A DNA stretch of 64,000 nt from Gammaproteobacteria bacterium Ga0077536 (GTDB lineage: Bacteria > Pseudomonadota > Gammaproteobacteria > Ga0077536), in contig LNEL01000055.1 of assembly GCA_001464935.1 (NCBI GenBank), positions 83,056 to 147,055 on the forward strand, given 5' to 3'. The notes under the pieces were generated by a model. It made no database searches. It was not told the origin of the DNA and was given only the letters and a program-made list of their open reading frames with translations. Numbering within the stretch: position 1 is the first letter of the stretch; each line of letters starts with the position of its first letter. Shown in pieces: positions 2,917 to 47,536 of this stretch. A program made the position numbers and the translations under genes.

Positions 2917-3066
2917 CCACCGAGAACACAGAGAACACCGAGACGGGAAACAGGGATCAGATCGGACGGCTCGAGATTGCACGCGTGTTTCGCGCGGCGC
3001 GCAGCCTTGTGAAAGCAACGAAATCCCGTCACCGCAATTCCTCTGTGTTCTCGGTGTTCTCGGTGG
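2917..3066. repeat. MITE-like element, copy 1: 26-bp terminal inverted repeats CCACCGAGAACACAGAGAACACCGAG / CTCTGTGTTCTCGGTGTTCTCGGTGG
   Basis: Perfect inverted 26-mers flank ~100 bp of unrelated sequence, between the convergent ligase and DUF2269 genes. Confidence 0.7.
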
Positions 3067-3079
3067 CCAAGCCCACTGA

Positions 3080-3562
3080 TCAAGGCGGAATGCCGAGCTT
3101 CGGTCGCCAGATCGCGATCACCACGTTCGCGATCGACAGCACCATGATCGTCCACATGCCGCCCCATTCACTGCTGAGAATTTTCTCCATCACCGCCGGA
3201 TCGCCGGTGCCTTCGGCGAGCCTGGCCGACATCGAGGCCGCGCGCGTTGCCTGCGACTGCACGGTCGCGAGCGTGCCTTCGAACATGCCGAGGCCGAGCA
3301 CGGCTTTCAGCAGCACCCAGCCCTGATGCAGATACGGCTTGTGAACGATCATCGCGATGAGACCGCTGAGCAGCACCAGCGCGAGCGACGGCAGCAGCAG
3401 CCACTTGCAGACCATCAGCATGCCCTGACGCATCGCCGCGAGTTCGGCCAGCCCGGCCGGTGCGTTGACCGCCAGCACCATGTTCGCTGCGATCGCGCCC
3501 ATCAGCCCCACCGCGCCGAGCGTATGCAGAATCTTCACGGCACGTTTCAAGCGTAAGGACAT
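3080..3562 (-). CDS. DUF2269-family small membrane protein
   Basis: Internal ATG (M116 of track ORF 3080..3907) preceded by a GGGGGTG RBS. Four predicted TM helices (MSLRLKRAVKILHTLGAVGLMGAIAANMVLAV...). The upstream part of the ORF is Arg/Ser-rich junk. Confidence 0.6.
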   Translation of the reverse strand: MSLRLKRAVKILHTLGAVGLMGAIAANMVLAVNAPAGLAELAAMRQGMLMVCKWLLLPSLALVLLSGLIAMIVHKPYLHQGWVLLKAVLGLGMFEGTLATVQSQATRAASMSARLAEGTGDPAVMEKILSSEWGGMWTIMVLSIANVVIAIWRPKLGIPP

Positions 3563-3695
3563 CGCCACCCCCGGGGCGTTCTCTGGGAAGTCCGGCCCGG
3601 TCCGCTGCCGGGCGCCGCGCGCATTGGCCTCACCGCCGCAGTTCAGGGCCCGGCTTCGTGATTCGAGCGTGCGCCCTGCAATACGTCCGACCCGC

Positions 3696-4220
3696 TCACA
3701 CCGGTTTGGCCAGGATCTCCTGCAGCGACTGGCCGCCGACGCCGGTGACGCTGAGATGGCCGTAGTAGCGCACCGAGATCCGCAGGAAGGCGAAACGCCA
3801 GCGATCGGGATCGCGCCGCATGCGGTGCTGATAGGTGCCGATGAGGACCAGGTCGTTGGCGAGGATCTCGAAGAAATAGGCCAGCGTCGTCGCCTCGTCG
3901 CCGGCAAGCGCGATCTGCATGTTGGTGCTCAGATGGCCGGTCGAGAACAGGCCCTTCGGGATATTCGCACCGGTATCGATCGCCGGCTTGTAGAAGCGCT
4001 CGATGATGTCCTGCCGCCCCCGATACACCCCGTCGATGCCGGGCGCCAGCGTCTCCAGACCCACCATCTCGAGTTCGCCGTCAGGGACGTAAACCTCCGC
4101 CAGTCCCGCCCAGTCCTCGGAGTCGAGCCGCTGGCAGTAATCGAGCCACGTGTCCCGCACGGCTTCCCGGTCCTCGAGCCGCTGCAGTCTTGCCAGTACT
4201 TCATCGAGCGTAATCGACAC
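3696..4220 (-). CDS. nuclear transport factor 2 (SnoaL-like) family protein
   Basis: GTG start (V24 of the track ORF) six nt after GGAGGAGG. The track ORF N-terminus reads into repeat copy 2 and is not real. Confidence 0.6.
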   Translation of the reverse strand: MSITLDEVLARLQRLEDREAVRDTWLDYCQRLDSEDWAGLAEVYVPDGELEMVGLETLAPGIDGVYRGRQDIIERFYKPAIDTGANIPKGLFSTGHLSTNMQIALAGDEATTLAYFFEILANDLVLIGTYQHRMRRDPDRWRFAFLRISVRYYGHLSVTGVGGQSLQEILAKPV

Positions 4221-4248
4221 GTCTCTGCCTCCTCCAACGTCGGTTTTG

Positions 4249-4379
4249 CCACCGAGAACACAGAGAACACCGGGAATGGAAGAGATCACGCAGTCGGAAG
4301 CCTCGCGCCTGACGTAAGCTGACGTCTGCCCGGTTCAGCTTCTCATGTTCTTCCTCTGTGTTCTCGGTGTTCTCGGTGG
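4249..4379. repeat. MITE-like element, copy 2, same 26-bp terminal inverted repeats as copy 1
   Basis: CCACCGAGAACACAGAGAACACCGGG ... CCTCTGTGTTCTCGGTGTTCTCGGTGG. The interior is unrelated to copy 1. Confidence 0.7.
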
Positions 4380-4385
4380 CCAGAA

Positions 4386-5456
4386 CTACCTGAATGCCGG
4401 CATGATCTCGTCCGCGAACTGATCAATCGTCGCGTCGGTGTCCAGGATCGGCTGCACTGCGACCTGGTGGACGCCGGCGGCGTGCATCTGGCGGATGGAG
4501 TCGATGACCTGCTCCTTGGTGCCGACCAGCGTCGTCGCGCGCATGATCTTCTCCGTCATCAGCGCTTCGTGCTCGGGACGGAGTTTCTGCAGGTAGCCGC
4601 TGTAGAGCTTCAGGTGGCGGGTCTCGACCGGCGCTTCGGGGTCCTTGTACACGTTCGTGAAGGCGACGAGCTCGTCGCGGAGATCGGCCGGCAGCAGGTT
4701 CGGGTCGTGGTGGGTGGACAGTGCGAAGATATTGCTCGACGACGCCACCATCGGACCGACGGCCTCACGCACTGCACGCGTCTCGATGTCCTTTTCGCTC
4801 TTCGTCAGGTAGAAGGCGGTCATCGACAGCACGTAGACCTTGTCCGGATCGCGGCCGGCCTTCTTCGCGCCGATCTTCACGTTGTCCACCATCCATTTGC
4901 AGATCGACGGATGCACCGCGCCGAAGAGAATCACGCCATCGGCGATTTCACCGGCCATCTGCGCGACTTTCGGACCGCTCGCGGAGATATAGATGGGGAT
5001 CGGATCCTTGATGTTGATGTAGCCCATGTCGGGATTCAGGAACTTGATCTTGCGGTGGCGATCGCCTTCGGCGTAGTCGGTGATCTGATCCTTGAACAGG
5101 CCCTGACAGACTTCGATGTGCTCGCGCAGTTCATCGAGGCGCGCGGCCGGCATGCCGAGCGTGCGACGCGTGGTGTTGCCGGTGCCGATGCCGAGGATCG
5201 CGCGGCCCGGCGCGATCTGGTTGATCGTCGCCATGCCGCAGGCGGTCAGTGGCGCGATGCGGGATTTCGGGTTGGTGACGCCGGGTCCCAGCTTGATCTT
5301 CTGCGTACCCGCCGCGCACAGCGCGAGCGATGCATAGACCTCGCTGCCGAGCATCTGCGAGTCATAGAGCCAGCCGTGCGAGTAGCCGCGGTCCTCGGCG
5401 TGCTTGACCTGCGGCGTGACCTGGCAGGAACCCATGAAGACGAATCCGAAGTCCAT
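4386..5456 (-). CDS. LLM class flavin-dependent oxidoreductase (luciferase-like monooxygenase)
   Basis: 356 aa with the TIM-barrel luciferase-like signature (GIGTGNT, ...AGVHQV...). Confidence 0.85.
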   Translation of the reverse strand: MDFGFVFMGSCQVTPQVKHAEDRGYSHGWLYDSQMLGSEVYASLALCAAGTQKIKLGPGVTNPKSRIAPLTACGMATINQIAPGRAILGIGTGNTTRRTLGMPAARLDELREHIEVCQGLFKDQITDYAEGDRHRKIKFLNPDMGYINIKDPIPIYISASGPKVAQMAGEIADGVILFGAVHPSICKWMVDNVKIGAKKAGRDPDKVYVLSMTAFYLTKSEKDIETRAVREAVGPMVASSSNIFALSTHHDPNLLPADLRDELVAFTNVYKDPEAPVETRHLKLYSGYLQKLRPEHEALMTEKIMRATTLVGTKEQVIDSIRQMHAAGVHQVAVQPILDTDATIDQFADEIMPAFR

Positions 5457-5531
5457 TGCAACCTCCCCTGGCTGTTGTACGCGTTGAGGGGCCTAGCATA
5501 GGAGACGCCGCAGCGCGCTGTCAGCTTTCGT

Positions 5532-7307
5532 TCAGTGGTTGAACTGCAGGGCGGCGAGCTTCGCGTACAGCCCGCCGTCGCGGGTCAGTGACGCATGCGT
5601 GCCGGATTCGACGATCCGGCCCTGGTCCAGCACGAGGATGCGGTCGGCATGCTGCACCGTGGCAAGACGGTGGGCGATGATCAGCGTCGTGTGATCGCGC
5701 ATCAGCGTGGCGAGCGCCTGCTGCACGAGATGTTCGGACTCGGCGTCGAGCGCGCTGGTCGCCTCGTCGAGCAGCAGCAACGGACGATCGGCCAGAATCG
5801 CGCGCGCAATCGCCAGGCGCTGGCGCTGGCCGCCGGACAGTTGCACGCCGCGCTCACCGAGGTTGGTCTCGAGCCCCTGCGGCAGGCGCTGGATGAACTC
5901 CCACGCGAACGCGGCGCGACAGGCTTCCTCGACCGCCGCGGCGTCCGCGTCGGGCTGGCCGTAGCGCACGTTGTCGAGCACGCTCGCGGCGAAGATCACC
6001 GGGTCCTGCGGCACCAGCGCGATCGCCGCGCGCAGCGCGCGCGGATCGACGTCGCGCGCGTCCACACCGTCGAGTCGCACCGCGCCGGCCTGCGGATCGT
6101 AATAGCGCAGCAGCAACTGGAAGACGGTGGTCTTGCCGCCGCCGGACGGCCCGACCAGCGCGACCTTCTCGCCGGCCGCGACGTCGAGCGTAAAGTCGCG
6201 CAGCGCCGGATCGGACAGGCGCGACGGATAGGCAAACGTCACGCCCTCGAAGCTCACCGCGCCGCGGGCCGGCGCCGGCAGGGGTCGCGGGTTCACCGGT
6301 GCCTCGATCGCGGGCCTGGTCTCGAGCAGTTCGAGCAGGCGTTCGGCGGCGCCGGCGGCGCGCTGGAGTTCACCCATGACTTCGGCCACCGCCCCCACCG
6401 CGCCCGCGACCAGCACCGCGTAGAACACGAAGGCGGACAGATTGCCCGGCGACAGGCGGCCGGCGACGACATCGTGCCCGCCAACCCACAGGATCGCGCC
6501 GATGGCGCCGAAGGCGAGCAGGATCACCGTCGACACCATCGCCGCTCGCACGAGAATGCGCCGCTGCGCGGTCGTGAAATGCGCCTCGACCCGCGCGCCG
6601 AAACTCCGACGGTCGGCCGCTTCATGGACATAGGCCTGCACGGTGCGGATTTCGTGCAGCGTCTCGTCGATGTAGGCGGCGACGTCCGCAATGCGGTCCT
6701 GGCTCGCGCGTGACAGCTTTCGCACGCGTCGCCCGGCCACGATGATCGGCAGGAACACCACCGGCACGCCTACCAGCACCAGCAGCGTCAGTTTCGCCGA
6801 CGTCAGCGCGAGCATCACGAAGGCGCCGATCATCAACAGCAGATTGCGCAGCGCGAACGACGCCGACGAGCCGACCACGGTTTCCAGCAACTGCGTGTCA
6901 TTGGTCAGCCGCGAGATCACTTCGCCCGTGCGCGTCTGCTCGAAGAAGCTCGGCGACAGATCGAGGATGTGGTCGAACACCGCGCGCCGGATGTCGGCGG
7001 TCACCCGCTCGCCGAGCCAGGTCACGAGGTAGAAGCGGCCGAAAGTGGCGCCCGCGAGCACGACGATGACGACGAACAGGCCAATCAGCGCTTCGTTCAG
7101 CAGGCCCGCGTTGCCGGCCGCGATGCCCCGATCGATCACGAGCTTCAGGCCCTGCCCGATCGCCAGCACGCTGCCGGCGGCGATCACCAGCGCCAGCGCC
7201 GCCCACGCGACGCGCACGCGGTAGGGGCGCACGAAGCGCCACAGGATCTTCAACTGCCGAAGGTTCTTCGAAGCCGGCCTGCGGGCCGCGTCATTGAAAG
7301 AGGCCAT
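5532..7307 (-). CDS. ABC transporter ATP-binding/permease fusion (type I exporter, MsbA-like)
   Basis: Six-TM domain followed by Walker A GPSGGGKTT, signature LSGGQRQRLAIARA and Walker B LLLLDEATSALD. Start moved to M33 (MASFND...) with an ACGGAG RBS. Confidence 0.85.
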   Translation of the reverse strand: MASFNDAARRPASKNLRQLKILWRFVRPYRVRVAWAALALVIAAGSVLAIGQGLKLVIDRGIAAGNAGLLNEALIGLFVVIVVLAGATFGRFYLVTWLGERVTADIRRAVFDHILDLSPSFFEQTRTGEVISRLTNDTQLLETVVGSSASFALRNLLLMIGAFVMLALTSAKLTLLVLVGVPVVFLPIIVAGRRVRKLSRASQDRIADVAAYIDETLHEIRTVQAYVHEAADRRSFGARVEAHFTTAQRRILVRAAMVSTVILLAFGAIGAILWVGGHDVVAGRLSPGNLSAFVFYAVLVAGAVGAVAEVMGELQRAAGAAERLLELLETRPAIEAPVNPRPLPAPARGAVSFEGVTFAYPSRLSDPALRDFTLDVAAGEKVALVGPSGGGKTTVFQLLLRYYDPQAGAVRLDGVDARDVDPRALRAAIALVPQDPVIFAASVLDNVRYGQPDADAAAVEEACRAAFAWEFIQRLPQGLETNLGERGVQLSGGQRQRLAIARAILADRPLLLLDEATSALDAESEHLVQQALATLMRDHTTLIIAHRLATVQHADRILVLDQGRIVESGTHASLTRDGGLYAKLAALQFNH

Positions 7308-7556
7308 GAGCTCCGTTCGGGATGGGGACGTGGCAGGAATGCCGCAGCGCATTGTAGCCCGCCGGGCACGGGCGGGCGGCATCGGATCCGGGACGCGCCG
7401 CATGCGCCGGGGGCGAAGACCACCGGTGTCGCTTCATCCCTGCCGCGTCGCCCGATATCATCGGTCCAGGTCAGCCTGGCGCCCGTGCGCCGCGCCGGCT
7501 AATCACGACAACGACAATCCGCATCCGCCCGCGGCTGCGATCAGAAGGAGGTCTCC

Positions 7557-8462
7557 ATGAGTATCCGTACCGCCCAGGACCTGCGCGACGCCTATCGCCA
7601 GTTCAACGAAGCCGCACTCAGCAATCCGAATGCGACGCTCGCCGACATGCGCGCGAACGCCGAAGGCTTCGGCGAAATGACCGCCGAACCGGCGGGCGTC
7701 AAGTACGAACAGGTCGATGCCGGCGGCGTGCCGGCGATCATGGTGACGCCGGACGGCGCCAGCACCGATCGCGTGATCCAGTACACGCACGGCGGCGGCT
7801 ATGTGTTCTGCTCGGCGAACAGCCACAAGCGCCTCGCCGGACATCTCGCGAAAGCCGTCGGCTGCCGTGCGCTCGTGCTCGACTACCGCCTCGCACCCGA
7901 GCACCCGCACCCGGCGCCGGTCAACGACGCCGTCACGGCGTTTCGCTGGCTGCTCGCGCAGGGCATCAAGGCCGAACACATCGCGGTCTCCGGCGATTCT
8001 GCCGGCGGCGGTCTCGCCGTCGCGACGCTGCTCAAACTTCGCGATGACGGGATTGCCCAGCCGGCCGGCGCGGTGCCGATCTCGCCGTGGGTCGACATGG
8101 AGGGGGCCGGTGAATCGATGCAGACCCGCGCCGCGGTCGACATGTGCGTGCAGAAACCCGCGCTTCAGCAGCTCGGAGGCCTGTTCCTCGCCGGCAAGAG
8201 CACGCGCGACCCGTACGCCTCGCCGGTGTACGCAGATCTGAAGGGCATCGCGCCGATGTACATCCAGGTCGGCGACGAGGAAACGCTGCTCGACGACTCC
8301 GTGCGCCTCGCGCATCGCGCGCTCGACGCCGGGGTCGAAGTCAAACTCGAGATCTACCCTGAGATGCAGCATATCTTCCAGATCTGCGCCGGCTACCTGC
8401 CGCAGGCCGATGTCGCGGTCCAGCGCGCCGCCGCCTGGCTCAAGCCACGCCTGGGGCTCTGA
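7557..8462 (+). CDS. alpha/beta hydrolase, HSL-family esterase/lipase
   Basis: HGGGYVFCS oxyanion motif and GDSAGGGLA nucleophile elbow. AGGAGG RBS. Confidence 0.85.
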   Translation: MSIRTAQDLRDAYRQFNEAALSNPNATLADMRANAEGFGEMTAEPAGVKYEQVDAGGVPAIMVTPDGASTDRVIQYTHGGGYVFCSANSHKRLAGHLAKAVGCRALVLDYRLAPEHPHPAPVNDAVTAFRWLLAQGIKAEHIAVSGDSAGGGLAVATLLKLRDDGIAQPAGAVPISPWVDMEGAGESMQTRAAVDMCVQKPALQQLGGLFLAGKSTRDPYASPVYADLKGIAPMYIQVGDEETLLDDSVRLAHRALDAGVEVKLEIYPEMQHIFQICAGYLPQADVAVQRAAAWLKPRLGL

Positions 8463-8472
8463 GCTCGCAGCG

Positions 8473-8497
8473 AACGCCGCGCCTCGTGCGGCGTTCG
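8473..8497 (+). terminator. hairpin GAACGCCGC-N7-GCGGCGTTC immediately after the esterase stop
   Basis: Perfect 9-bp stem and 7-nt loop followed by GTATTGG. Candidate intrinsic terminator. Confidence 0.4.
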
Positions 8498-8503
8498 TAT
8501 TGG

Positions 8504-8609
8504 CCACCGCGAACACCGCGATGGGTGGGTGCAGCCGGGTCGCTGCCGTGAGCGTGCCGTACCCGTTTCTCCACTCATCCTGACTCGGTGTTCTCGGTGT
8601 TCTCGGTGG
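8504..8609. repeat. MITE-like element, copy 3 (degenerate left end CCACCGCGAACACCGCG, intact right end ACTCGGTGTTCTCGGTGTTCTCGGTGG)
   Basis: Same family as copies 1 and 2. The right terminal repeat overlaps the last codons of the kinase gene (...TENTENTESG). Confidence 0.6.
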
Positions 8610-10389
8610 CTGATTTCCCCCCCGCCAACCGCGCAATGACCTCCCGCAGGCGCTCGAGCGACACCGGCTTCGTCAGGTAGTCGTCCATGCCGGCGGCGAG
8701 ACAGCTCTCGCGATCGCCGGCCACGGCGTTCGCGGTGAGGGCGACGATGGGCACATGCCCGCCGGCAAGACGCTCGTGCGTGCGCCACGCGGCGGTGGCC
8801 TCGAAGCCGTTCATGCCGGGCATCTGACAGTCCATCAGCACGAGGTCGTAGCGGTCGGCCATCAGTTCGACGAGCGCGGCCTGTCCGTTGCCTGCGATTC
8901 GCACCTCGCAGCCGAGTGTGAGCAACATCTCGGACGCGACGACCTGGTTGACGTCGTTGTCCTCGACGAGCAGCACGCGGCGGCCCGCGATGGCCCGGGC
9001 CGGCGGCGGCGCAGCGGCGAGAGGTGCCTGCGCCGCCGCAGCCGCGGCCACCGCGAGCGGCAACGTGACGACGAAGGTCGAACCCCGGTCGGGCGTGCTG
9101 TCGAGCGCGATCCGGCCCTGCATCAGATCGATCAGTTCGGCGGTGATCGCGAGTCCGAGTCCCGTGCCGCCGGCGGCCACGGCCGCGTCGTGGACCTGGC
9201 TGAACGGCTTGAACAGCAGGGCCTGGGCGTGCTCGGCGATGCCGATGCCGGTATCGGCGATCGTGAACTCGACCAGCGCCTGCGCCGCGTCGACCTCGCG
9301 CACGCGCGCGGCGAGCCGCACATGGCCCTCTTCGGTGAACTTCATCGCATTGCCGAGCAGGTTCACCAGCACCTGGCGCAGGCGCACCGGATCGGCGCCG
9401 ACCTGCACCGGCAGCGCGGCATCGAGTTCGACGCTGAACGCGAGGCCCTTGCGCGCGGCGACCGGCGCGAACATGTCGCCGATGTCACGCAACAGCGCCG
9501 GCAGATTGAAGGATTCCCGGCGCAGGCTCATACCGCCCGCTTCGATCCGGCTCAGGTCGAGCACGTCGTTGATGATGCCGAGCAGCGACAGCGCTGACTT
9601 GCGAATCGTCGCGGCGTGGCTCAGCGCCCGTGGATTGTCCGAGCTTTCCTGCAACAGCTCGCTGAGACCGACCACCGCGTTCAGCGGGGTTCGAATCTCG
9701 TGGCTCATGTTCGCGAGAAAGCTCGACTTCGCGCGATTGGCACTTTCGGCGGCGTCGCGCGCCTGGGCCAGCGATGCCGCAAGCCCGGCGAGTTCGAGCC
9801 GCTGCAGGATGTTCCGCCGCAGGACGCCCGCGTTGACCCAGCTCATGCGCAGCAGGAAGAAACCGAACACGAAGCCGGCGAGCCCGGCGAGCGCGAGGTG
9901 AGGGTCGGCGGCGAAAAGGAAACGCAGACTGAAGGGCAGCACCGAGAAGAGCATGTAGGCGACATACGCACGGAAGTACACGCCGAAACTCGAGATCGCA
10001 CCGGCCGGCATGCCGGTGAGCAGCGACGCCAGCAGGAAATGCAGGCCTTCATCGCCGAGCGGCACCAGCAGCAGGCACGCATACCCCCAGATCGCGCCGG
10101 AGGCGGCCCCGAGCACGACGGCGGCCAGCGGCCAGTGGCCGGGGTCGTCCGCAAAATTCGGGTGCCGCCGGACGCTGATCGTGGCACCGATGCGGCATAT
10201 CCCCACCAGCGCCGTCGCCACCAGCCAGGTCACGAGCGTCACGCGATCGACGAAGGGCCAGACCGCGATCGCATAGGCCGCGGCGACGACGAACACGGAA
10301 ACCGCGCCGACAAGGCCCTGCCGCAGCAGCGTTTCCACCTGCTCGGCGCGCACGCGCGCGTCGTGCTGGCGAGTTTCGCCCGGCGTCAC
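8575..10389 (-). CDS. hybrid sensor histidine kinase/response regulator with N-terminal polytopic membrane sensor domain
   Basis: HisKA box SHEIRTPLNAV, HATPase_c region, and a C-terminal receiver domain (VLLVEDNDVNQ...DLVLMDCQMPGMNG...). Start placed at a GTG (V37) downstream of the rlmJ stop; the alternative is 10497. Confidence 0.75.
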   Translation of the reverse strand: MTPGETRQHDARVRAEQVETLLRQGLVGAVSVFVVAAAYAIAVWPFVDRVTLVTWLVATALVGICRIGATISVRRHPNFADDPGHWPLAAVVLGAASGAIWGYACLLLVPLGDEGLHFLLASLLTGMPAGAISSFGVYFRAYVAYMLFSVLPFSLRFLFAADPHLALAGLAGFVFGFFLLRMSWVNAGVLRRNILQRLELAGLAASLAQARDAAESANRAKSSFLANMSHEIRTPLNAVVGLSELLQESSDNPRALSHAATIRKSALSLLGIINDVLDLSRIEAGGMSLRRESFNLPALLRDIGDMFAPVAARKGLAFSVELDAALPVQVGADPVRLRQVLVNLLGNAMKFTEEGHVRLAARVREVDAAQALVEFTIADTGIGIAEHAQALLFKPFSQVHDAAVAAGGTGLGLAITAELIDLMQGRIALDSTPDRGSTFVVTLPLAVAAAAAAQAPLAAAPPPARAIAGRRVLLVEDNDVNQVVASEMLLTLGCEVRIAGNGQAALVELMADRYDLVLMDCQMPGMNGFEATAAWRTHERLAGGHVPIVALTANAVAGDRESCLAAGMDDYLTKPVSLERLREVIARLAGGKSATENTENTESG

Positions 10390-10430
10390 CGCCGCGTCCG
10401 CCCGGTCCAGCGCCGCCCCGGCCGGTGGCC

Positions 10431-11258
10431 TCACTCGCCGACCGACCAGCGCACGCGCGCACGCGCCGCGCCGTCGTGCTTCTCGAGCGCCACACACAGG
10501 GCCGCGAGCTCCGTCTCGAGCGGGTAGGGTGGATTGACGATTACGACCCCGGATCCCTTGAGCCCGACCGTCGTGTCCTCGCCGAACGGCATGTATTCGA
10601 TCACGAGCTGGCGGCGGATGCCGGTCGCAGCGAGGCGCTCGACGAAGCGCTGGGCCGCGAGCCGCGTCAGGATGGGGAACCAGATCGCATAGATCCCGGT
10701 TGCCCAGCGCCGATGCGACTCCGTGAGCAGGTCGACGACCTGCGCCTCTTCCTTGCGCAGCTCATATGGGGGGTCGATGAACACGAGGCCACGCCGTTCG
10801 GGCGGCGGCAACCAGGCCTTCAGCCGCGCATGGGCGTCGGCACGCTCGACCTTGACCGCCGGATCGCCCTCGAACCCGGCCGCCAGCGCGGCGTAGTCCG
10901 TCGGGTGAAGTTCGAGCAGGGCCAGACGGTCTTCCGGGCGCAGCAGCATGCGCGCGATCAGCGGCGAACCCGGATACCAGCGCAGCGGCCCGTGCTCGTT
11001 CAGTGCGCGCACGCAGTCGAGGTAGGGCACGAGCACCGGGTCGGTCGAATGCCACCACCTGGCGATGCCCTGCTCGTACTCGTGGGTCTGCTGGGCCTTC
11101 GGGTCGGCGAGGTCGTAGCGCCCCGCGCCCGCGTGGGTGTCGATGCAGACGAAGGGTTTGTCCTTGCGTTTCAACGCGTTCAACAGCAGCACGAGAACCG
11201 CGTGCTTCAGGACATCGGCATGGTTGCCGGCATGGAAGGCGTGGCGATAGCTCAGCAC
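10431..11258 (-). CDS. rlmJ: 23S rRNA (adenine2030-N6)-methyltransferase
   Basis: MLSYRHAFHAGNHADVLKH... N-terminus characteristic of RlmJ; 275 aa. Confidence 0.85.
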   Translation of the reverse strand: MLSYRHAFHAGNHADVLKHAVLVLLLNALKRKDKPFVCIDTHAGAGRYDLADPKAQQTHEYEQGIARWWHSTDPVLVPYLDCVRALNEHGPLRWYPGSPLIARMLLRPEDRLALLELHPTDYAALAAGFEGDPAVKVERADAHARLKAWLPPPERRGLVFIDPPYELRKEEAQVVDLLTESHRRWATGIYAIWFPILTRLAAQRFVERLAATGIRRQLVIEYMPFGEDTTVGLKGSGVVIVNPPYPLETELAALCVALEKHDGAARARVRWSVGE

Positions 11259-29684: not shown

Positions 29685-29848
29685 CACTGCGTAGGTTGGG
29701 CTGACGAAGGAAGCCCAACGCGTGCGCCCTCACGGCACCACCGGCAGGTACTCGGATACGCCCCCTGCCGGGGCCTGTGGCCAGACTTGTCGGTAGCCAA
29801 CAGAGACGCCGATGTTGGGCTTCCTTCGTCAGCCCAACCTACCAGTGG
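29685..29848. repeat. inverted pair of ~35-bp repeat copies, each with hairpin GTTGGGCT-N9-AGCCCAAC, flanking ~94 bp
   Basis: CACTG(C/G)GTAGGTTGGGCTGACGAAGGAAGCCCAAC at 29685..29719 and its reverse complement at 29814..29848. Confidence 0.6.
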
Positions 29849-40961: not shown

Positions 40962-41014
40962 TAATTGGGGACAGATCTATTTAATCGCCAAAAATAGATC
41001 TGTCCCCATTTTCG
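40962..41014. repeat. REP doublet: TAATTGGGGACAGATCTATTTAATCG abutting its inverse CCAAAAATAGATCTGTCCCCATTTTCG
   Basis: Minimal element made of the left and right REPs of the RAYT unit with nothing between them. Confidence 0.7.
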
Positions 41015-41122
41015 CCCGTGTCAACCGCTGAGCTGGAGCCGCTGGTGCGCGGCGCCCCTGTAAGCAACCCATCGACCTTGCCTGGACGCTGTCGTGGGAC
41101 GGACATGGCCAGTTCATCTTCC

Positions 41123-41163
41123 AAATGGGGACAGATCTATTTTCTTGAATATATCTGTCCCGA
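41123..41163. repeat. degenerate REP doublet (CCAAATGGGGACAGATCTATTTTCTTGAATATATCTGTCCCGAGG)
   Basis: Same GGGGACAGATCT core, decayed. Confidence 0.5.
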
Positions 41164-41305
41164 GGACTCGCGCCCCGACTCAATCCACGCGGCGGCGGCG
41201 CGAGGCGAGCAGCGCGGTGGCGCCGGCCATCAGCCACAAAGCGCCCGGGACGGGTACCGGCTGCGGGGCGGTGAGGCCCTGCAGATCGAACGCGATGCCG
41301 GAGTC

Positions 41306-42055
41306 CTAGGCCTCGTCGCCAAAGTTCACGACGCCCACTTCCAACTGGTAGGTGCCGGCGCCCGGCGTGACCAGTGACTGCAGCCAACCGGTGAAACCGC
41401 AACCTTCGGCGTTGTCGCGCCAGCAGGTGCCGTTCCACTCGCCGAGCGGCGACCAGTCGATGGGGTCGAAGTCACTGGACTTGGTGGTGCGCGTGTTGAA
41501 CTCGAACTCGTCGTAATTGACGATCACCGTGTCCACGTCGAAGTCCACGGTGTTGTTGTCGGCCTTGCTCAACGCATTGCCGGGCACGACGTTCTGCTTG
41601 TTGCCATTGGTGCTGCGCGCGGTGAAGAGCCACGCCGCCGTGTCGCCGGCGCTGTCGATGAGCCGAGCCCATGCGTAATCGTCGAACCCCTTGCCATCGG
41701 TCGAGACGTAGTTGAAATACGCCGCGACGGACTCGCCGGCCGCGAGCGTGAAGGGCGCCGACGTGTACGAGGAGCCATTGGTCTGGGTGAAATCCGCGCC
41801 GCCACCGCCGCTCTCGACGATGTGCAGCGGCGAGACGTTGTGGGCGGTCGAGCTGTTGGTCGTCAGGTAGGCATAGCCGGGGCTGCCGAACGGCGACAAG
41901 GTGATATCGCCGTCGGCGCCGAGCACGCCGCAACTGCCGACACAGGTCCAGGTGGCGAGATCCGGGCTGACACCGGCCGCGGCAACCGATGTACTGGCCA
42001 GGCCAGCGGCAGCCGCCGCCAGGCCGGCGAGGAGTTTCAGGTTCTTTTTGTTCAT
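41306..42055 (-). CDS. secreted hypothetical protein
   Basis: Start at MNKKNLKLLAGLAAAAAGLASTSVAAAG (Sec signal). No recognisable catalytic motif. Sits between REP copies. Confidence 0.55.
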   Translation of the reverse strand: MNKKNLKLLAGLAAAAAGLASTSVAAAGVSPDLATWTCVGSCGVLGADGDITLSPFGSPGYAYLTTNSSTAHNVSPLHIVESGGGGADFTQTNGSSYTSAPFTLAAGESVAAYFNYVSTDGKGFDDYAWARLIDSAGDTAAWLFTARSTNGNKQNVVPGNALSKADNNTVDFDVDTVIVNYDEFEFNTRTTKSSDFDPIDWSPLGEWNGTCWRDNAEGCGFTGWLQSLVTPGAGTYQLEVGVVNFGDEA

Positions 42056-42192
42056 CAAGGCGTCCTTCAGGGGTGATTGAACGGGCGGAAAGTGCGGCCC
42101 TGCCGTCTGTCTGGCGCCGCCGGTTGTAGTACCCGTTAATCCAGCCGGCACGACAGATGGTTCAAAGCCAGGAAGTGGCGCTTGTGAACACG

Positions 42193-43095
42193 TAATTGGG
42201 GACAGATCTATTTAATCTGTTTAATCGCATCAACAGTCGCGCTCGAGCCGCGGTCCGCGCGGCCGGCCGCGGGGCCTGAGCTCGATTCGCCGGCCTAAAA
42301 TCGACGCCACTTCTTCCGTAAATCGTTCGCCTCCCGTCAGATGGCCCCGTTGTATCCCCATTAGAATCAAGTCCCCCTCGGCCGGTGGTAGCGGCTCACG
42401 CAGGTAGTCGCGCCACGCTTGCACGAGCGGCGGTGAATTGGAGGACCATGCGTCGTCCAGGAGCTGCGGCTCAATCAATCCAAGGCGTTCCTGGCAGCTC
42501 GACCAGGGATAATCCTCTGGCGCGACGGCGATACCGGCGCGCACCGGGTTCAGTTCGATGTAGCGGCAGCAGGCATGGAGATAGGCCTCGCTCTGGACGA
42601 CGCTCGACTTGTAGCGGCCGTCCCAAAGCGTGCCGGTGCGACGCTCCTGTGCGTTGTGATAACGCGTTTGGCGCCCGGCCAGGCGCTTCATCAAACGCGC
42701 CAGGCTGTCCTTGCGCGCCGGCACGAGCAGTAGATGCACGTGATTGGTCATCAGGCACCAGGCGAACACCCGAACTTCGCATTCGGCCTTCAGTGCAGAA
42801 AGCGAATCGAGATATCGTAAATAGTCGGCAGCCTCCGCAAACGTGGCCTGTCGATTGTGTCCGCGCTGGACCACGTGGTGGGGATACCCCGGCATGACAA
42901 TACGTGCCATCCGTGGCATCGCTTGCGTCCTCTGTGACTGGAAACTGCACCCGTTGAAGGATGCCTGGAGGCTGCATTAAAGAACAGTCGTCGCGCCTGC
43001 GCTTTTCGCGGGGCGGAGCGGCATGCGGCGTGGGCGATAAAGCGGGGCTCGAAGTCAAAAATCGAAGTCAAAAACAGATCCGTCCCCTTTTTTCG
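42193..43095 (-). mobile_element. complete REP-RAYT-REP unit
   Basis: Left REP TAATTGGGGACAGATCTATTTAATC (42193..42217), the tnpA-like gene, and right REP CAAAAACAGATCCGTCCCCTTTTTTCG (43069..43095) in inverted orientation. Confidence 0.8.
42230..42919 (-). CDS. REP-associated tyrosine transposase (RAYT; IS200/IS605 Y1 TnpA-like)
   Basis: PGYPHHVVQRGHNRQ, HxH motif in CLMTNHVHLLL, catalytic Tyr region RYIELNPVRAG. Confidence 0.85.
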   Translation of the reverse strand: MPRMARIVMPGYPHHVVQRGHNRQATFAEAADYLRYLDSLSALKAECEVRVFAWCLMTNHVHLLLVPARKDSLARLMKRLAGRQTRYHNAQERRTGTLWDGRYKSSVVQSEAYLHACCRYIELNPVRAGIAVAPEDYPWSSCQERLGLIEPQLLDDAWSSNSPPLVQAWRDYLREPLPPAEGDLILMGIQRGHLTGGERFTEEVASILGRRIELRPRGRPRGPRLERDC

Positions 43096-43180
43096 CGGTT
43101 GCCGGTCGGGTCGAGAAGAGGCGGTTGCTCGCCGCCGAGGTCTGGGTGGTAAGCCGGCTCATGTTGTCGTAACCGCACTT

Positions 43181-43205
43181 GAATAGATCTGTCCCGGATT
43201 TTCCG
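43181..43205. repeat. solo REP (GAATAGATCTGTCCCGGATTTTCCG)
   Basis: Matches the right-REP consensus. Confidence 0.5.
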
Positions 43206-43254
43206 ATTTCTTGCTGGCCACCGCGGCGCAATGCTGGCGCCGAACATCTGGGCA

Positions 43255-43407
43255 TAATTGGGGACAGATCTATTTAATCGGCTCAAAAGTCGCGCTCGAG
43301 TCGAGATCCGAGCGACCGGCCAAGGGCCCCGAGCTCGACTCGTCGGCCTAGAATCGACACAACTTCCTCCGTAATTCAGCCGAAAATAGATCCGTCCCCT
43401 TTTTCAG
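43255..43407. mobile_element. RAYT-deletion MITE: left REP + ~120 bp homologous to the 3' end of tnpA + right REP
   Basis: The interior aligns with 42219..42330 (the C-terminal codons of the RAYT and its downstream flank). Confidence 0.7.
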
Positions 43408-43557
43408 ATGTACGTGGAACCGAGGCAAGGTCACAATTCCAGGCGTCGCGCGAAAAGACTCGATTCTCGACGTCCGCTTCAGCAATGCCGATTCAGTAAC
43501 CCTTTCATCCAGCCTATAATCAGTGTCTCAATCACCTTCCCCCCCAACGGAGACCAC

Positions 43558-43680
43558 ATGGCCAAGCCACCCAACTACAAACAAGAGAAAAAGCGCCGCG
43601 AAGATGCGCAAAAGAAAAAGAAGGAACTGGAGCAGCAGCAAAAAGTCGCCCGCAAGAATTCGCCCGTCATTCCTCAGTGA
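43558..43680 (+). CDS. small Lys/Glu-rich protein (40 aa; DUF2986-like)
   Basis: MAKPPNYKQEKKRREDAQKKKKELEQQQKVARKNSPVIPQ with a GGAG RBS. GTGA overlap with the next gene. Local GC clearly lower than the surroundings. Confidence 0.4.
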   Translation: MAKPPNYKQEKKRREDAQKKKKELEQQQKVARKNSPVIPQ

Positions 43681-44279
43681 ATGGCGCGCTCGAGCTGGAA
43701 TGTGACAGGGCACCAGACACTGACACTGAGGAGCCGATTCTTGCTGCAACTAAAAAGTGGCTGGAACGCGCTGTAATCGGACTGGGCCTTTGTCCTTTCG
43801 CCGCAAACGTGCTTCTGCGCGATCAAATCCGCTATCGAGTCAGCACGCAGGATTCGACAACTGGTTTGCTGCAGGATCTCTCCTGCGAGCTACAGTTTCT
43901 TCGCGATACAGACCCGCAGCGCTGTGAGACGAGTTTGCTGATTCACCCTCACGTGCTCAGCAATTTTTTTGACTATAACGAATTCCTGAACGAGGCTGAT
44001 GAAGCCGTTTTTGAGCTGGGGCTCACGGGTGAACTGCAAATCGCCAGCTTTCATCCGGCTTATCAGTTTGCTGGATGCGCGCCGGACGACATTGAGAACT
44101 ACAGCAACCGCTCGCCCTACCCGATGTTGCATCTCCTGCGAGAAGCGAGCGTCGCGCGCGCGGTGGCGACTTTCCCCGGTATCAACGAAATAGGCAGCAA
44201 CAACATCTCGACCTTGCGTCGCTTGGGGAAAGCCGGTTGGCAACGATTAGATCTGAACCCCTCCCCAACGTCGACGTAA
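43677..44279 (+). CDS. DUF1415 domain protein
   Basis: GLCPFA motif; 200 aa; low-GC region. Confidence 0.7.
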   Translation: MNGALELECDRAPDTDTEEPILAATKKWLERAVIGLGLCPFAANVLLRDQIRYRVSTQDSTTGLLQDLSCELQFLRDTDPQRCETSLLIHPHVLSNFFDYNEFLNEADEAVFELGLTGELQIASFHPAYQFAGCAPDDIENYSNRSPYPMLHLLREASVARAVATFPGINEIGSNNISTLRRLGKAGWQRLDLNPSPTST

Positions 44280-44307
44280 AGCACAGATCAATGGCTGATC
44301 CCCGGGC

Positions 44308-44416
44308 TAATTGGGGACAGATCTATTTAATCGCCTTTCGCGGGGCAAAGCGGCACGTGGCGCGGGCGACAGGACAAAGCTCGAAGCCAAAAATAGATCT
44401 GTCCCCTTTTTCTCGG
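44308..44416. repeat. RAYT-derived MITE: left REP + ~55 bp homologous to the RAYT 5' flank + right REP
   Basis: CCTTTCGCGGGGCAAAGCGGCACGTGGCGCGGGCGACAGGACAAAGCTCGAAGCCAAAAATAGATCTGTCCCC aligns with 42990..43090 upstream of tnpA. Confidence 0.65.
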
Positions 44417-44500
44417 TTTCATTTCGTTATACCCGGACTACCCGGAGGCGCAATATCCGCCGGAAGCGGCGAGTCATTCAGCTTCTTGCGCGACCGGTGG

Positions 44501-44992
44501 CTATGCTGGTTTTGCCTGTTCGAAGCGGGCCACGAGCAGCGCGAGTGCCTCGGGCGGCAGCTGATCGCGAGGGAAGACGATGAAGATTTCGGCGTCGCGC
44601 GGTTTGCGGCGGAGCAGGAGGCAGGGCTCGAGGTATTCGAGGCCATCGAAGGCGGCCCAATACGCTTCGATGTTTCCCAGTGCCGACTGTTCACGCAGCA
44701 CGGACTCGCCAATCTCGTAGCGCAGTGGCTCGGTGCCGAGCACGTCGAGTTGCAGCTGCGCGATCCGCACGGCGTTCGCGCGCATCGAATCCAGGAAGGC
44801 CATCACCAGCACGCTCGCAGTCGTCAGGGCGACGGCCGGCCACGGTGCGGCGCGCATCAGGAACATCGCCAGCACGCTGCCGGCGCCGATGACGCCGGCG
44901 ATGTAGTAGGGTCGCCGGAAACGGCGCTGCCACCACGCGGTATAGGCTGCCCGCAGCGTCTCCGGCGTATGCCGGATGTCAAAGGCGATCAC
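44501..44992 (-). CDS. YcxB-like membrane protein (start uncertain)
   Basis: Two TM helices (VIGAGSVLAMFLMRAAPWPAVALTTASVLVMAFL). Tentative GTG start; the Arg-rich upstream part of the track ORF is discounted. Confidence 0.4.
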   Translation of the reverse strand: MIAFDIRHTPETLRAAYTAWWQRRFRRPYYIAGVIGAGSVLAMFLMRAAPWPAVALTTASVLVMAFLDSMRANAVRIAQLQLDVLGTEPLRYEIGESVLREQSALGNIEAYWAAFDGLEYLEPCLLLRRKPRDAEIFIVFPRDQLPPEALALLVARFEQAKPA

Positions 44993-45078
44993 GCTGCCGG
45001 CCCTGTGCTGCGCGAAACTCGCGCGCAGCCACCCGTGTCGCGCGGATTCGCAGCGCCGGTGACGGCCGGCCGCCGCAT

Positions 45079-45453
45079 TCAGGCGTGCGTTTCGGCCATG
45101 TAGACCTTCTGCGCGATCTGCCAGCGGCCGTCGATCTTCAGGAACGACAGGATGTCGGTGAAGTAACGCGGCGGCACCGCGCATTTCAGTTTCACGTGCG
45201 CCATCGTCGGGCCGATCAAATCGATGCTGAGGATGTGGTCGTCGCGCTGCTTGCCGGCGGCCTTCGGGGATTCCCGATTCTTCACCATCTCGCACCACTG
45301 GTCGCGTGGAATGATCTTCAGCTCGCCGTCGAGTACGGCGGTCAGCGCGCAGGTCTGGTGAAAGACGGCGGCGAGCTTCGCCGCATCGCCTTCGTAGAGC
45401 CCGTCGAGATAGGTCTGCGTCGCGGCGCGAATCTCATTCAGATCGTTGGACAT
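45079..45453 (-). CDS. NTF2-like (SnoaL/DUF4440) protein
   Basis: 124 aa; last gene of the LLM-ADC operon. Confidence 0.6.
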   Translation of the reverse strand: MSNDLNEIRAATQTYLDGLYEGDAAKLAAVFHQTCALTAVLDGELKIIPRDQWCEMVKNRESPKAAGKQRDDHILSIDLIGPTMAHVKLKCAVPPRYFTDILSFLKIDGRWQIAQKVYMAETHA

Positions 45454-45486
45454 CGCAATCTCTCCTGGTGTGGGCGGGCGGTAGGA

Positions 45487-46248
45487 TCAGCGGGCGATTT
45501 TCTTCGCGCCGCCCTGTTCGGCCGGCACGACGAAGTCAGCGGTGAAACGCGGCGCGTGCAGCGTGGCGTCGACCAGCGCGTGTGTGCCGGACATCGGGTA
45601 CTTCGGTGTGATGCGGGCGTCGCCGAGGCCGGCGGCGTCGAATGTCAGCAGCTGCGGCGTGCCGCGAATCACGCGCTTGAATGAGTAGCCCGCTTCCATC
45701 TGCACCATCATCGGCTGGTCGCCGACGCGCGCGGGATTCAGGGCCGGCGAATACTTCACCGCGGCACCCGCCCCGACGACCGGCTGCATGTGCGTGGTGA
45801 CGGTGTCGAGCAGCGTGCGGCCGTTCTGGACGATGCGGCCCTGCAGGCGATCGTAGTTCTCGCGGTAGTGCACGTCCGCGACCTCATAGTTGAAGCCGTA
45901 GCGTCGCTGCAGCCACTCGCCGACGTCCGCGCGTGTCACGTAAGCCGCATGAATCAGATGGCGCGGCTTGATGCCGGTGCGGCACGCCAGGCCGAGCCAC
46001 GCGCATTCGAAGGCGCCCAGCGGCCCGCCGTCGCAGCGCCAGAAGGTGACGCCGAGATGGGCGGGAATCGCCGGGTGCAGGCTCGCGGGCAGGCATTCGA
46101 GCGCGGCCTCCATCGGCACTTCGAACAGCGCGTAGTGCACCTGCAGATTCTCGAGCGTGAGGTCTTCGGTCAGGCTGATATCGAGGCGGGCCGTGACCTC
46201 ACGCCAGTCAGCGGCGGGGCGATGGCCATACAGCAGTTCGGCTTTCAT
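45487..46248 (-). CDS. acetoacetate decarboxylase (ADC) family protein
   Basis: Start at an internal ATG that overlaps the stop of the upstream LLM gene (ATGA). 253 aa ADC-like beta-cone fold sequence. The N-terminal 225 aa of the track ORF are junk. Confidence 0.8.
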   Translation of the reverse strand: MKAELLYGHRPAADWREVTARLDISLTEDLTLENLQVHYALFEVPMEAALECLPASLHPAIPAHLGVTFWRCDGGPLGAFECAWLGLACRTGIKPRHLIHAAYVTRADVGEWLQRRYGFNYEVADVHYRENYDRLQGRIVQNGRTLLDTVTTHMQPVVGAGAAVKYSPALNPARVGDQPMMVQMEAGYSFKRVIRGTPQLLTFDAAGLGDARITPKYPMSGTHALVDATLHAPRFTADFVVPAEQGGAKKIAR

Positions 46249-47354
46249 CGTGCCCCTACCGCCGCGCGGGCCGGCTTGTGCTCGCTGAAATGCGGCATCA
46301 CTTCGCGCGCGAAGAGCCGCAGGCTGTCCATCACTTCCTCGTGCGCGATCACTTCGCGCGCCTGCACCATGAACACCAGCTGGTCGGCACCGGCGGCTTC
46401 CCAGCGCCGCACGGTGTCGATCAAGGTCGCCGGATCGCCGAAGCACAGCCCGCTCGGCGGCAGCTTGTGTTCGCCCGGCGCATGCGGGTCGGGCCGCAGC
46501 GTGCCGAGCAGGCCGATCGCAGTGTAGTTGCTGGCCGGATAGGCTTCGGAGATCTCGACGGTCTGGCCGGCCATGTAGCCGAAGGTCGATACCATCTCTT
46601 CGCCGCGTTGCCGCGCGTAGCTGCCGTCCTTGTGACAGAACAGCCAGTTCGCGACTGCAATCTGATCGTTGACGAAGGCGCCGACGGGCTCGCATTTCTT
46701 CACGCGTTCGCGATAGGCCTCGAAGCGCGGGATGTTGCGCTCGACGTCCGCGATCGAGAGGATCAGCGCGCCCATGCCGCGGTCGGCGGCATCGAGTTCG
46801 GTGCCGTGGCCCGTCACCGCGACCCACAGCGGCGGATGCGGATCCTGCCAGGGTTTCGGCAGCACGTTGCGTTCCGGCATCGTGTGGTAGGTGCCTTCGT
46901 AGCCGTAGCGCTCGTTCATCCACATCTGTGGAATCACGCGGCAGTATTCGTCCCAGTTGCGCTTGGTGTCGTCGACGCTCGCATTGAAGCCGGCGAGTTC
47001 ATTCCACGTCGACGAGCGGCCGGTGCCGAACTCGACGCGGCCGCCGGACAGCATGTCGAGGAACGCGGCCTTCTCGGCGAGGCGAATAGGGTGGTGCAGC
47101 GCCGGTACGCAGGTCGCGATGCCGAAGCCGAGGCGGATGCGGGTGGTCTCGCGCGCTATCGCGGCGAGGAACATCTCGGGGCAGCTGGCGTGGCTGTACT
47201 CCTCGAGGAAGTGATGCTCGACGCACCACACGCTCGAAAACCCGAGTTCATCGGCCAGCACCGCCTGCGCGATGGCGTTCTCGTAGACCGCCTTCTGCGT
47301 GTCGCGCGTGAACGGGCGCGGCGTCGACAATTCATAAAAGAGACCGAACTTCAT
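46245..47354 (-). CDS. LLM class flavin-dependent oxidoreductase
   Basis: Start at M40 (MKFGLFYELSTP...) seven nt after GGAGGG. Confidence 0.85.
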   Translation of the reverse strand: MKFGLFYELSTPRPFTRDTQKAVYENAIAQAVLADELGFSSVWCVEHHFLEEYSHASCPEMFLAAIARETTRIRLGFGIATCVPALHHPIRLAEKAAFLDMLSGGRVEFGTGRSSTWNELAGFNASVDDTKRNWDEYCRVIPQMWMNERYGYEGTYHTMPERNVLPKPWQDPHPPLWVAVTGHGTELDAADRGMGALILSIADVERNIPRFEAYRERVKKCEPVGAFVNDQIAVANWLFCHKDGSYARQRGEEMVSTFGYMAGQTVEISEAYPASNYTAIGLLGTLRPDPHAPGEHKLPPSGLCFGDPATLIDTVRRWEAAGADQLVFMVQAREVIAHEEVMDSLRLFAREVMPHFSEHKPARAAVGAR

Positions 47355-47490
47355 CGCGAACCCTCCTGCAGGTCCGCCCGAGTGTGCCATAGCGGGGCGC
47401 GTGGCTGGAAGGCGGCAAGGGTCGGCGCCATGCCGGGCCCGCCTCCGCCCTGCCATGTGGCACTCCGGCAAACAGCAGCCCCGCCGGCAG

Positions 47491-47536
47491 CCACCTCAGA
47501 AAATACAGAAAATAGATCTGTCCCTATTTTTCTGAA
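47491..47536. repeat. hybrid solo repeat CCACCTCAGAAAATACAGAAAATAGATCTGTCCCTATTTTTCTG
   Basis: The 5' half resembles the CCACC-GAGAACAC family and the 3' half is a right-REP (AAATAGATCTGTCCC). Confidence 0.45.

Follow-up and report, generated by a model that had tools for sequence, protein, structure and literature searches.

What kind of repeat keeps its ends nearly unchanged while the sequence between them differs from copy to copy? This question is raised by three elements in a 64,000-nt stretch of the Gammaproteobacteria bacterium Ga0077536 genome (contig LNEL01000055.1, positions 83,056 to 147,055; referred to here as the window, with positions counted from its first letter). An earlier note on this DNA had described the elements as sharing inverted arms that are assembled from a tandem 9-mer, GAGAACAC(A/C), and enclose unrelated interiors, and each part of this description was borne out. 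The arms have the form CCACC(GAGAACACN)2GAG. With three or fewer mismatches, the 26-mer CCACCGAGAACACAGAGAACACCGAG was found at five sites in the window, namely 2917-2942 (+), 3041-3066 (-), 4249-4274 (+), 4354-4379 (-), and 8584-8609 (-), compared with none in 100 dinucleotide-preserving shuffles; in the third element, the left arm is represented by a shortened version, CCACCGCGAACACCGCGA. Smith-Waterman alignments of the interiors in both orientations yielded scores at the level of shuffled sequences (p 0.2-0.9). All three elements lie in the first 9 kb of the window, within a span of 5.7 kb, and none was found in the other 55 kb. These findings support a repeat family, here called the CCACC family, in which the inverted ends are conserved and the interiors are unrelated.

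Our preferred answer, on which our judgement is evenly divided, is that these are orphan repeats of the foldback type, in which a reader that acts in trans and recognises specific sequence keeps the arms conserved, and the centre, as the middle of a palindrome, is unstable. The repeated unit is one module of ~45-60 nt, consisting of a loose TTNR head, a 26-nt phased core, and a C-poor, purine-rich tail, and an element consists of two such modules facing each other. The interior would be the centre of an imperfect palindrome, carrying no cargo and subject to no constraint, and would be remodelled by insertions and deletions (indels), by hairpin-tip instability, and by the nested insertion of other repeats. 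Modules and doublets would come and go as discrete units, leaving no target duplication, would survive where insertion is tolerated (at stop codons, at intercistronic junctions, and in frame at gene termini), and would then persist at orthologous sites. The phased CCAC/GAG/CAC positions would be maintained by a DNA-reading protein that acts in trans and is not encoded beside the elements, for which a mobilising enzyme and a host DNA-binding factor are the candidates. Both this protein and the cause of centre turnover are inferred from the observations described below.

The arms in the window represent one variant (N = C/A and NN = AA) of a more general core of ~26 nt, CCAC-N-GAG-NN-CAC-N-GAG-NN-CAC-N-GAG, which in its window form contains no stop codon in any of the six frames. 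The position profile of the module has three parts, i.e. a head ending in TT-N-purine (TTNR), the invariant core, and a C-depleted, purine-rich tail of 12-15 nt, and the commonest form is TT(A/G/C)A-CCAC(A/G)GAGGACAC(A/G)GAG(A/G)ACACGGAGG. The module, rich in purines and built from CCAC and phased direct 9-mers, has no self-complementarity and no GTAG/CGTC tag. Arms are mostly arranged in convergent pairs 70-450 nt apart: 63 of the 68 convergent neighbours were separated by <500 nt (median, 136 nt), and the other three orientations accounted for only 8, 8, and 12 cases within 500 nt. In the other phyla, the partner arm is mostly a different variant of the phased core. Only one strict arm was present in 126 of 217 loci, and such single arms are found facing either way relative to genes (53 vs 34, with strands taken from crude open reading frame (ORF) heuristics). 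Whole elements fold as long hairpins on both strands (z -3.4 to -6.9 relative to shuffles), and the centres alone fold no better than shuffles. The inverted repeat fades gradually outward (TTTTG...CAAAA) without a sharp end, no direct repeat indicative of target-site duplication was detected at 55 arm pairs, and the stop codon of the neighbouring gene is typically located 0-20 nt outside the core.

Which positions of the arms are maintained was seen by comparison with syntenic relatives, obtained from one metagenome scan with the protein of the monooxygenase gene adjoining the second element. The only other contigs carrying the same protein were 100 and 99.96% identical to the window and so hold no information on strain-level variation. 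In L219, the DNA of which is 82-88% identical to the window (0.68 at four-fold degenerate sites), an element is present at all three sites. Fixed core positions were identical between the two at 72 of 78 positions (92%) and N positions at 16 of 24 (67%; Fisher p 0.004), the latter value matching the neutral rate given by the four-fold sites (68%). The same pattern of conservation was observed in L058 at site 2 and between L033 and L050. Partner arms do not covary, their identity at N/NN positions being 0.49-0.71 vs 0.33-0.68 for shuffled partners, and G-U-compatible differences were not enriched on the transcribed strand (8 vs 8, by crude strand calls); perfect pairing is therefore not what is maintained, and the pattern of conservation is not accounted for by base pairing in RNA. 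Fixed positions that are kept beside neutral N positions, the absence of covariation, and the occurrence of single modules in both orientations together point to a sequence-specific reader acting in trans. Of the protein-recognised end proposed in the earlier note, this part stands, whereas the suggested role for a terminator-binding factor is unsupported: a T-run is found 5' of the stem and an A-run 3' of it, the reverse of the order in a terminator, a scan with the intrinsic terminator consensus gave nothing at the window elements, and copies occur inside the nuo and gmd-fcl operons.

The centres behave differently from the arms. Those at sites 1 and 2 could not be aligned between the window and L219, and only the centre at site 3, which is partly coding, was still alignable (Smith-Waterman score 31, p < 0.002). 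Centre turnover is faster than that of four-fold sites. Among 59 centres sampled, shared sequence consisted mostly of nested foreign repetitive extragenic palindromic (REP) sequences, apart from three related pairs found in L095 (a local tandem duplication), in L031/L066 (Hydrogenophaga), and in L020/L026 (two metagenome-assembled genomes, MAGs), and simple copy-paste of whole elements, as the earlier note suspected, is insufficient to explain this. Both REPs of the GTAG type and further copies of the CCACC family are nested in centres, so that nested insertion as a cause of turnover was seen directly; indels at the hairpin tip are a likely further cause. The centres of palindromes are generally unstable. 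The arms also vary in length, since the number of 9-mers differs between orthologues: the tail of the kinase encoded at site 3 reads ATENTESG* in L219, one unit fewer than ATENTENTESG in the window. In L222, an element lies downstream of the same AMP-binding gene as element 1, at a junction without the two intervening genes and with arms of the GGAGGACACGGAG variant, and in the more distant relatives L218, L220, and L221, site 2, site 3, or both are without an element.

Other repeats associated with centres deserve separate mention. A GTAG-tagged REP doublet (GTAGGTTGGGCTGACGAAGGAAGCCCAAC) with 29-nt arms that are 100% complementary and 94 nt apart is located at 29691-29842 of the window, and nested copies of the same REP occur within CCACC-type elements from a Gammaproteobacteria MAG (L023 and L050). 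A miniature inverted-repeat transposable element (MITE) of ~430 nt, present at L031 3661-4084, L066 5903-6328, and in L089 (Hydrogenophaga intermedia MAG), encloses two CCACC-type elements; on the outside it has inverted ends (CTGTCTCTTGGTCACATTTGAA) similar to the Tn5/IS4 mosaic end.

Related viral contigs differ by whole units. A 50-nt single module (CTAAATCCTCCCTCCGTGTCCTCTGTGTTCTCTGTGGTTAATCCCCTCCC) in L197, represented by a 49-nt variant in L136, is cleanly missing from L099, L188, L192, and L104; its site is beside a stop codon, and where the module is present its sequence takes the place of the upstream stop (TAT TGA to TAC TAA), without any duplication. Similarly, a doublet of 134-136 nt is present in L130 and absent from L124 with no target duplication. 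In the empty allele of L124, the stop and the ATG are 1 nt apart, and the stop is regenerated with the doublet (TAA to TAG); at a distance of 850 nt, L124 also contains a related copy that has identical arm variants, is similar in its tails, and differs in its centre. Thus, either a single module of ~50 nt or an entire doublet is gained or lost as one unit at stop/start junctions. As additional features of this region, tandem repeats of ~10 nt (GGGACTAAAC / GGGCACTAAC ...) occur immediately upstream of the module in L099, L104, and L136, and L099 and L136 have, adjoining the module, a segment of ~85 nt that L104 lacks.

Searches beyond the window found the motif far outside it, so that the condition under which the earlier note would have given up its idea, a 26-mer confined to this stretch, did not hold. 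The exact 22-mer CCACCGAGAACACNGAGAACAC was detected in at least 94 genome stretches (one genome per species) from Gamma- and Betaproteobacteria, Planctomycetota, Chlamydiota, Chloroflexota, Acidobacteriota, Cloacimonadota, and UBP9; some matches in actinomycetes and Caulobacter are coding low-complexity sequence, and all other matches share the architecture seen in the window. Gammaproteobacteria MAGs contain tens of copies each, and the family is also found in Hydrogenophaga and Burkholderiales. The core occurs in MAGs, isolates, and viral contigs of at least ten phyla, and the generic pattern, with 19 specified bases, matched at least 120 viral-contig stretches, for which a rough estimate of the chance expectation is ~1. 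Cultured isolates with the family, identified by BLAST against plasmid and chromid records, include Gemmatirosa kalamazoonensis (18 and 15 places on two replicons), Pseudoalteromonas shioyasakiensis, Bacteroides ovatus, B. finegoldii, Nostoc, and Anabaena. There were no matches in 5,426 genomes of E. coli and no convincing copies in cultured phages.

The genomic settings are more varied than the earlier note had proposed, according to which the elements are always located at gene 3' ends. All three copies in the window do abut such an end, although copy 2 also lies just upstream of the next gene, and copies of the wider family are also located within operons (nuoC-D and nuoI-J of Burkholderiales MAGs, gmd-fcl of Bacteroides ovatus), immediately 5' of genes, or in frame where a coding sequence begins or ends. 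Single modules are common in viral contigs, where they are often found just 5' of a ribosome-binding site and ATG; others are in frame at the very start of an ORF and give M(K)(I/L)TTEDTENTE. A nearby ATG with a long downstream ORF was present for the T-E-x frame in 15 of 151 viral arms vs 1-2 for the other frames. A coding origin of the 9-nt phase was rejected, because variation falls on the first two codon positions and the third is fixed, unlike in coding sequence. Small ORFs within the elements were also considered: an ATG after GAGG is frequent in one MAG, is absent from copy 1 of the window, and is not a general feature. As a separate observation, small ORF cassettes lie between two phage genes in the viral contigs L105 (7583-7803), L187, L122, and L167, as compared with L136 (8529-8536). 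Their junctions show microhomology of 8-9 nt (AAATGAAAT), and each cassette opens with a module that, in frame, reads MKITTEDTENTE or MTTEDTEDTE.

This distribution raises a broader possibility, which we regard as doubtful but worth stating. The 26-nt core may be a pan-bacterial recognition module for a widely distributed protein or mobilisation machinery, with units of ~50 nt being inserted at stop/start junctions without target duplication and kept by purifying selection at orthologous sites in more than ten phyla and in their phages. If so, the elements would form a class as general as REPs, common to many phyla and so far undescribed.

The main rival to the foldback explanation, unlikely in our view, is that the elements serve the host as RNA hairpins in 3' untranslated or intercistronic RNA, where they might act as an exonuclease shield, an RNase III site, or a terminator without a U-tract, as REP, ERIC, and Correia sequences do. 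That whole elements fold far beyond shuffles on both strands, that they lie right after stop codons and within operons, and that an inverted pair produces the same RNA from either strand are all in its favour. Against it, the arms do not covary at N/NN, approximately half of those positions mismatch, and no G-U-compatible excess appears on the transcribed strand. Moreover, single modules are common and occur in both orientations, no T-run follows the stem, the terminator scan was negative, and a stable stem would need no fixed sequence common to ten phyla. We consider the readings based on known mobile systems less likely still. One of these, rather improbable, is REPIN-like mobilisation through single-stranded DNA by a single-copy Y1/HUH transposase of the RAYT type encoded elsewhere in the genome. 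It would account for the doublets, the lack of target duplication, the long vertical persistence at orthologous sites, and the conserved TTNR flank, which is a possible cleavage or target tetranucleotide; such genes are single-copy and easily missed, and a Y1 gene does exist in the window. This gene (Y1_Tnp, IS200-like, of the RAYT/TIRYT type; 42230-42919 on the minus strand; Pfam PF01797, E 9e-14), the only Y1 gene of the window, is flanked by another repeat family (GGGGACAGATCT) and not by CCACC arms. A tblastn search with its protein yielded two distant homologues (in L003 and L011), which are not flanked by arms either, the nearest arms being 1.8-4 kb away. In addition, the module is not a hairpin and has no GTAG/CGTC tag, and RAYT-REP pairs are lineage-specific whereas the core is common to many phyla.

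The earlier note had called the elements MITE-like. In a classical MITE, a DDE transposase would bind the 26-bp ends, and the interiors would differ as independent internal-deletion derivatives of a larger parent. This interpretation, which we hold to be improbable, fits the conserved inverted ends, the position-specific conservation typical of transposase contacts, the presence/absence polymorphism, and the spread across phyla and viral contigs. A MITE in the strict sense is not supported: target-site duplication is lacking both at the 55 pairs and at two clean polymorphic sites, and none of the ~260 loci examined yielded an autonomous element. In these loci, no arm pair at a spacing like that of an insertion sequence (IS) surrounds a shared or recurring ORF, and only five convergent arm pairs are at least 500 nt apart (546-5,989 nt). 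There is no recurrent neighbour gene, since the 2,611 ORFs of the loci, when clustered, gave only SDR dehydrogenases and ABC ATPases as repeated families. Furthermore, single modules act as units, the inverted repeat has no sharp end, and the copies, apart from the three related pairs, share little internally except nested foreign REPs and form no homogeneous population. Shared inverted repeats around unrelated interiors are also the signature of invertons, in which a master invertase would flip the interiors, and Bacteroides, a carrier of the CCACC family, is rich in invertons. We give this explanation almost no credence: the interiors are only 40-100 nt long and contain no promoter match in the window, the sites are located between convergent stops or inside coding ends, single modules exist, and no recombinase gene recurs near the elements in the loci examined.

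Several points weigh against the foldback explanation with a reader in trans. No binding protein or mobilising enzyme was identified in the loci, which leaves its central inference without direct support, and conservation at fixed positions could also be explained by gene conversion among many copies in place of selection. Because the searches demanded the fixed positions, family-wide conservation at those positions is partly a matter of ascertainment; the orthologue comparison avoids this problem and consists of six arms between the window and L219. The context statistics depend on strands assigned by crude ORF heuristics, and the presence/absence cases may reflect either insertion or precise deletion of a unit. 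Finally, the clustering of three copies within 5.7 kb has no explanation.

Among known systems, the REP/REPIN/BIME sequences of Proteobacteria, which are mobilised by RAYT, resemble the CCACC family as short extragenic repeats that form inverted doublets with a less conserved spacer, lack target duplications, occur after stop codons or within operons, persist at orthologous sites, and build mosaic or nested clusters. Unlike them, the CCACC module consists of three phased direct 9-mers with neither a self-complementary stem-loop nor a GTAG/CGTC tag, no RAYT gene flanked by CCACC arms was found in the sequences examined, and the core spans at least ten phyla. Correia (NEMIS), ERIC, BOX, and RPE sequences are likewise palindromic repeats of 70-170 nt that are co-transcribed with their neighbours; Correia elements have 26-bp terminal repeats, BOX elements contain a variable number of internal modules, and RPEs lie in frame inside genes, as do some CCACC copies. 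Each of these, however, is confined to one genus or family, their copies share interiors, and they lack the CACNGAGNN phasing; Correia elements also differ in making a TA duplication. Foldback (FB) elements of Drosophila and other eukaryotes have inverted arms made of short tandem repeats and a heterogeneous or absent centre, and most of their copies are non-coding. The combination of tandem-repeat inverted arms with a variable centre may be compared with that of the CCACC family, although FB arms are hundreds of bp long with many repeats, the elements are eukaryotic, and they generate target duplications, so that the comparison is an analogy that implies no homology. The features that distinguish the family from known small palindromic extragenic repeats are its core of phased 9-mers, its single modular unit, and its distribution across phyla.

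REP, ERIC, and Correia sequences are regarded as lineage-specific, whereas the CCACC core keeps the same 19 fixed bases across phyla, i.e. in Bacteroides, Nostoc, Planctomycetes, Chlamydiae, Chloroflexi, Proteobacteria, and viral contigs. If a common reader exists, be it an enzyme or a host factor, it would represent a new and very widespread DNA-protein system and also a novel route by which tiny DNA units spread with no transposase close by. Any function of the repeat is so far putative. In practical terms, the family breaks assemblies, creates spurious short ORFs, and alters gene termini (TENTENTE tails and MKITTEDTE heads), and it is at present invisible to Rfam-based annotation: no Rfam 15 model matched the elements of the window or of 15 loci at the gathering score, nothing relevant emerged at gathering or relaxed thresholds when 18 loci were covered, relaxed scans of the loci gave only sub-threshold, generic microRNA-precursor hairpins at the elements, and a relaxed scan of the window produced three chance matches, none overlapping an element. 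No description of the motif was found in the searchable literature, from which subscription journals are mostly missing, so that an earlier description is possible; it is not among the motifs treated in the REP/RAYT papers or the 2026 Minerva preprint. Isolates that carry the family (Bacteroides ovatus, Pseudoalteromonas shioyasakiensis, and Gemmatirosa kalamazoonensis) open the question to experiment.

The three elements of the window differ in their gene contexts, for which gene calls were taken from an identical metagenome contig, by which the origin of the window is traced to JGI sample 3300002461. Element 1 is flanked by the convergent stops of a gene for an AMP-binding enzyme (2900) and a 160-aa gene (3080). 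Its 16-nt head starts straight after the TAG stop of the former (2898-2900) and is followed by the left arm (2917..2942, plus strand; CCACC GAGAACACA GAGAACACC GAG), a unique centre of 98 nt (2943..3040), which has shuffle-level structure (z +0.15) and cannot be aligned with its L219 orthologue, and the right arm (3041..3066, minus strand; reverse complement, CCACCGAGAACACCGAGAACACAGAG), located 13 nt from the stop of the 160-aa gene (3080-3082). The arms of this copy are 26-27 nt long and 93% complementary, and the extended arms of copy 2 are 32 nt long and 84% complementary. Element 2 is intercistronic, lying between two genes on the same strand, with the stop of the luciferase-like monooxygenase gene at 4386 and the start of the SnoaL_4 gene at 4220. 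Its left arm (4249..4274, plus strand; CCACCGAGAACACAGAGAACACCGGG) is 29 nt upstream of the SnoaL_4 start codon (4218-4220, minus strand), its unique 79-nt centre (4275..4353; z -0.30, i.e. structure at chance level) is unalignable with the centres of both L219 and L058, and its right arm (4354..4379, minus strand) is 6 nt from the monooxygenase stop (4386-4388).

Element 3 is again flanked by convergent stops, those of a hydrolase gene (8462) and a hybrid histidine kinase gene (8575). A short GC hairpin, located after the hydrolase stop (8460-8462), precedes the degenerate left arm (8504..8521, plus strand). The right part of the 62-nt centre (8522..8583) codes for the end of the kinase, and the right arm (8584..8609, minus strand) encodes ATENTENTE near the end of the same protein (8575-10434, minus strand). 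The claim of the earlier note that the right repeat of copy 3 supplies the last codons of the kinase (here read as ...ATENTENTESG) and its stop was correct.

The other repeat family of the window surrounds the Y1 gene. The earlier note had regarded 47491..47536 as a hybrid copy joining the two families; the site shares with the CCACC family only GCCACC, a hexamer found 74 times in the window, and is an ordinary copy of the other family (AAATAGATCTGTCCC). The proposed interaction of the two repeat systems is unsupported in consequence. Nine copies of this other family (TAATTGGGGACAGATCTATTTAATC) are present in 6.5 kb around the Y1 gene, with repeats at 40968-47514, and GGGGACAG is confined to 40.9-47.5 kb of the window, a local clustering like that of the CCACC elements. 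Repeats around TIRYT tyrosine-transposase genes carry the motif GGGGWSAS (Di Nocera et al. 2013, PMC3733652), which GGGGACAG fits and the CCACC family does not. Those repeats (PMC3733652) resemble the CCACC family in being dispersed inverted-repeat families, found as singles, dimers, and groups, that are not classical REPs; by motif and by position next to the Y1 gene, it is the GGGGACAG family that corresponds to them. Together, the Y1 gene and the GGGGACAG repeats look like a complete transposase-plus-repeat unit.

Other resemblances of the CCACC arms were examined and set aside. The T at position 4 of the DnaA box is conserved in known boxes and never occurs at that position in the arms (TTAACCACA vs TTATCCACA). 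Mimicry of Shine-Dalgarno or anti-Shine-Dalgarno sequences is unlikely, as the subfamily in the window has GAGAA units and the family occurs in Bacteroidota, and likenesses to integron attC sites, CIRCE, and phage T3/SP6 promoters are superficial only. Elsewhere in the window, positions 52890-53176 (plus strand) match the Rfam family 5_ureB_sRNA at 117 bits (gathering score, 40), a match that probably reflects conservation of the ureB coding sequence and not a small RNA.

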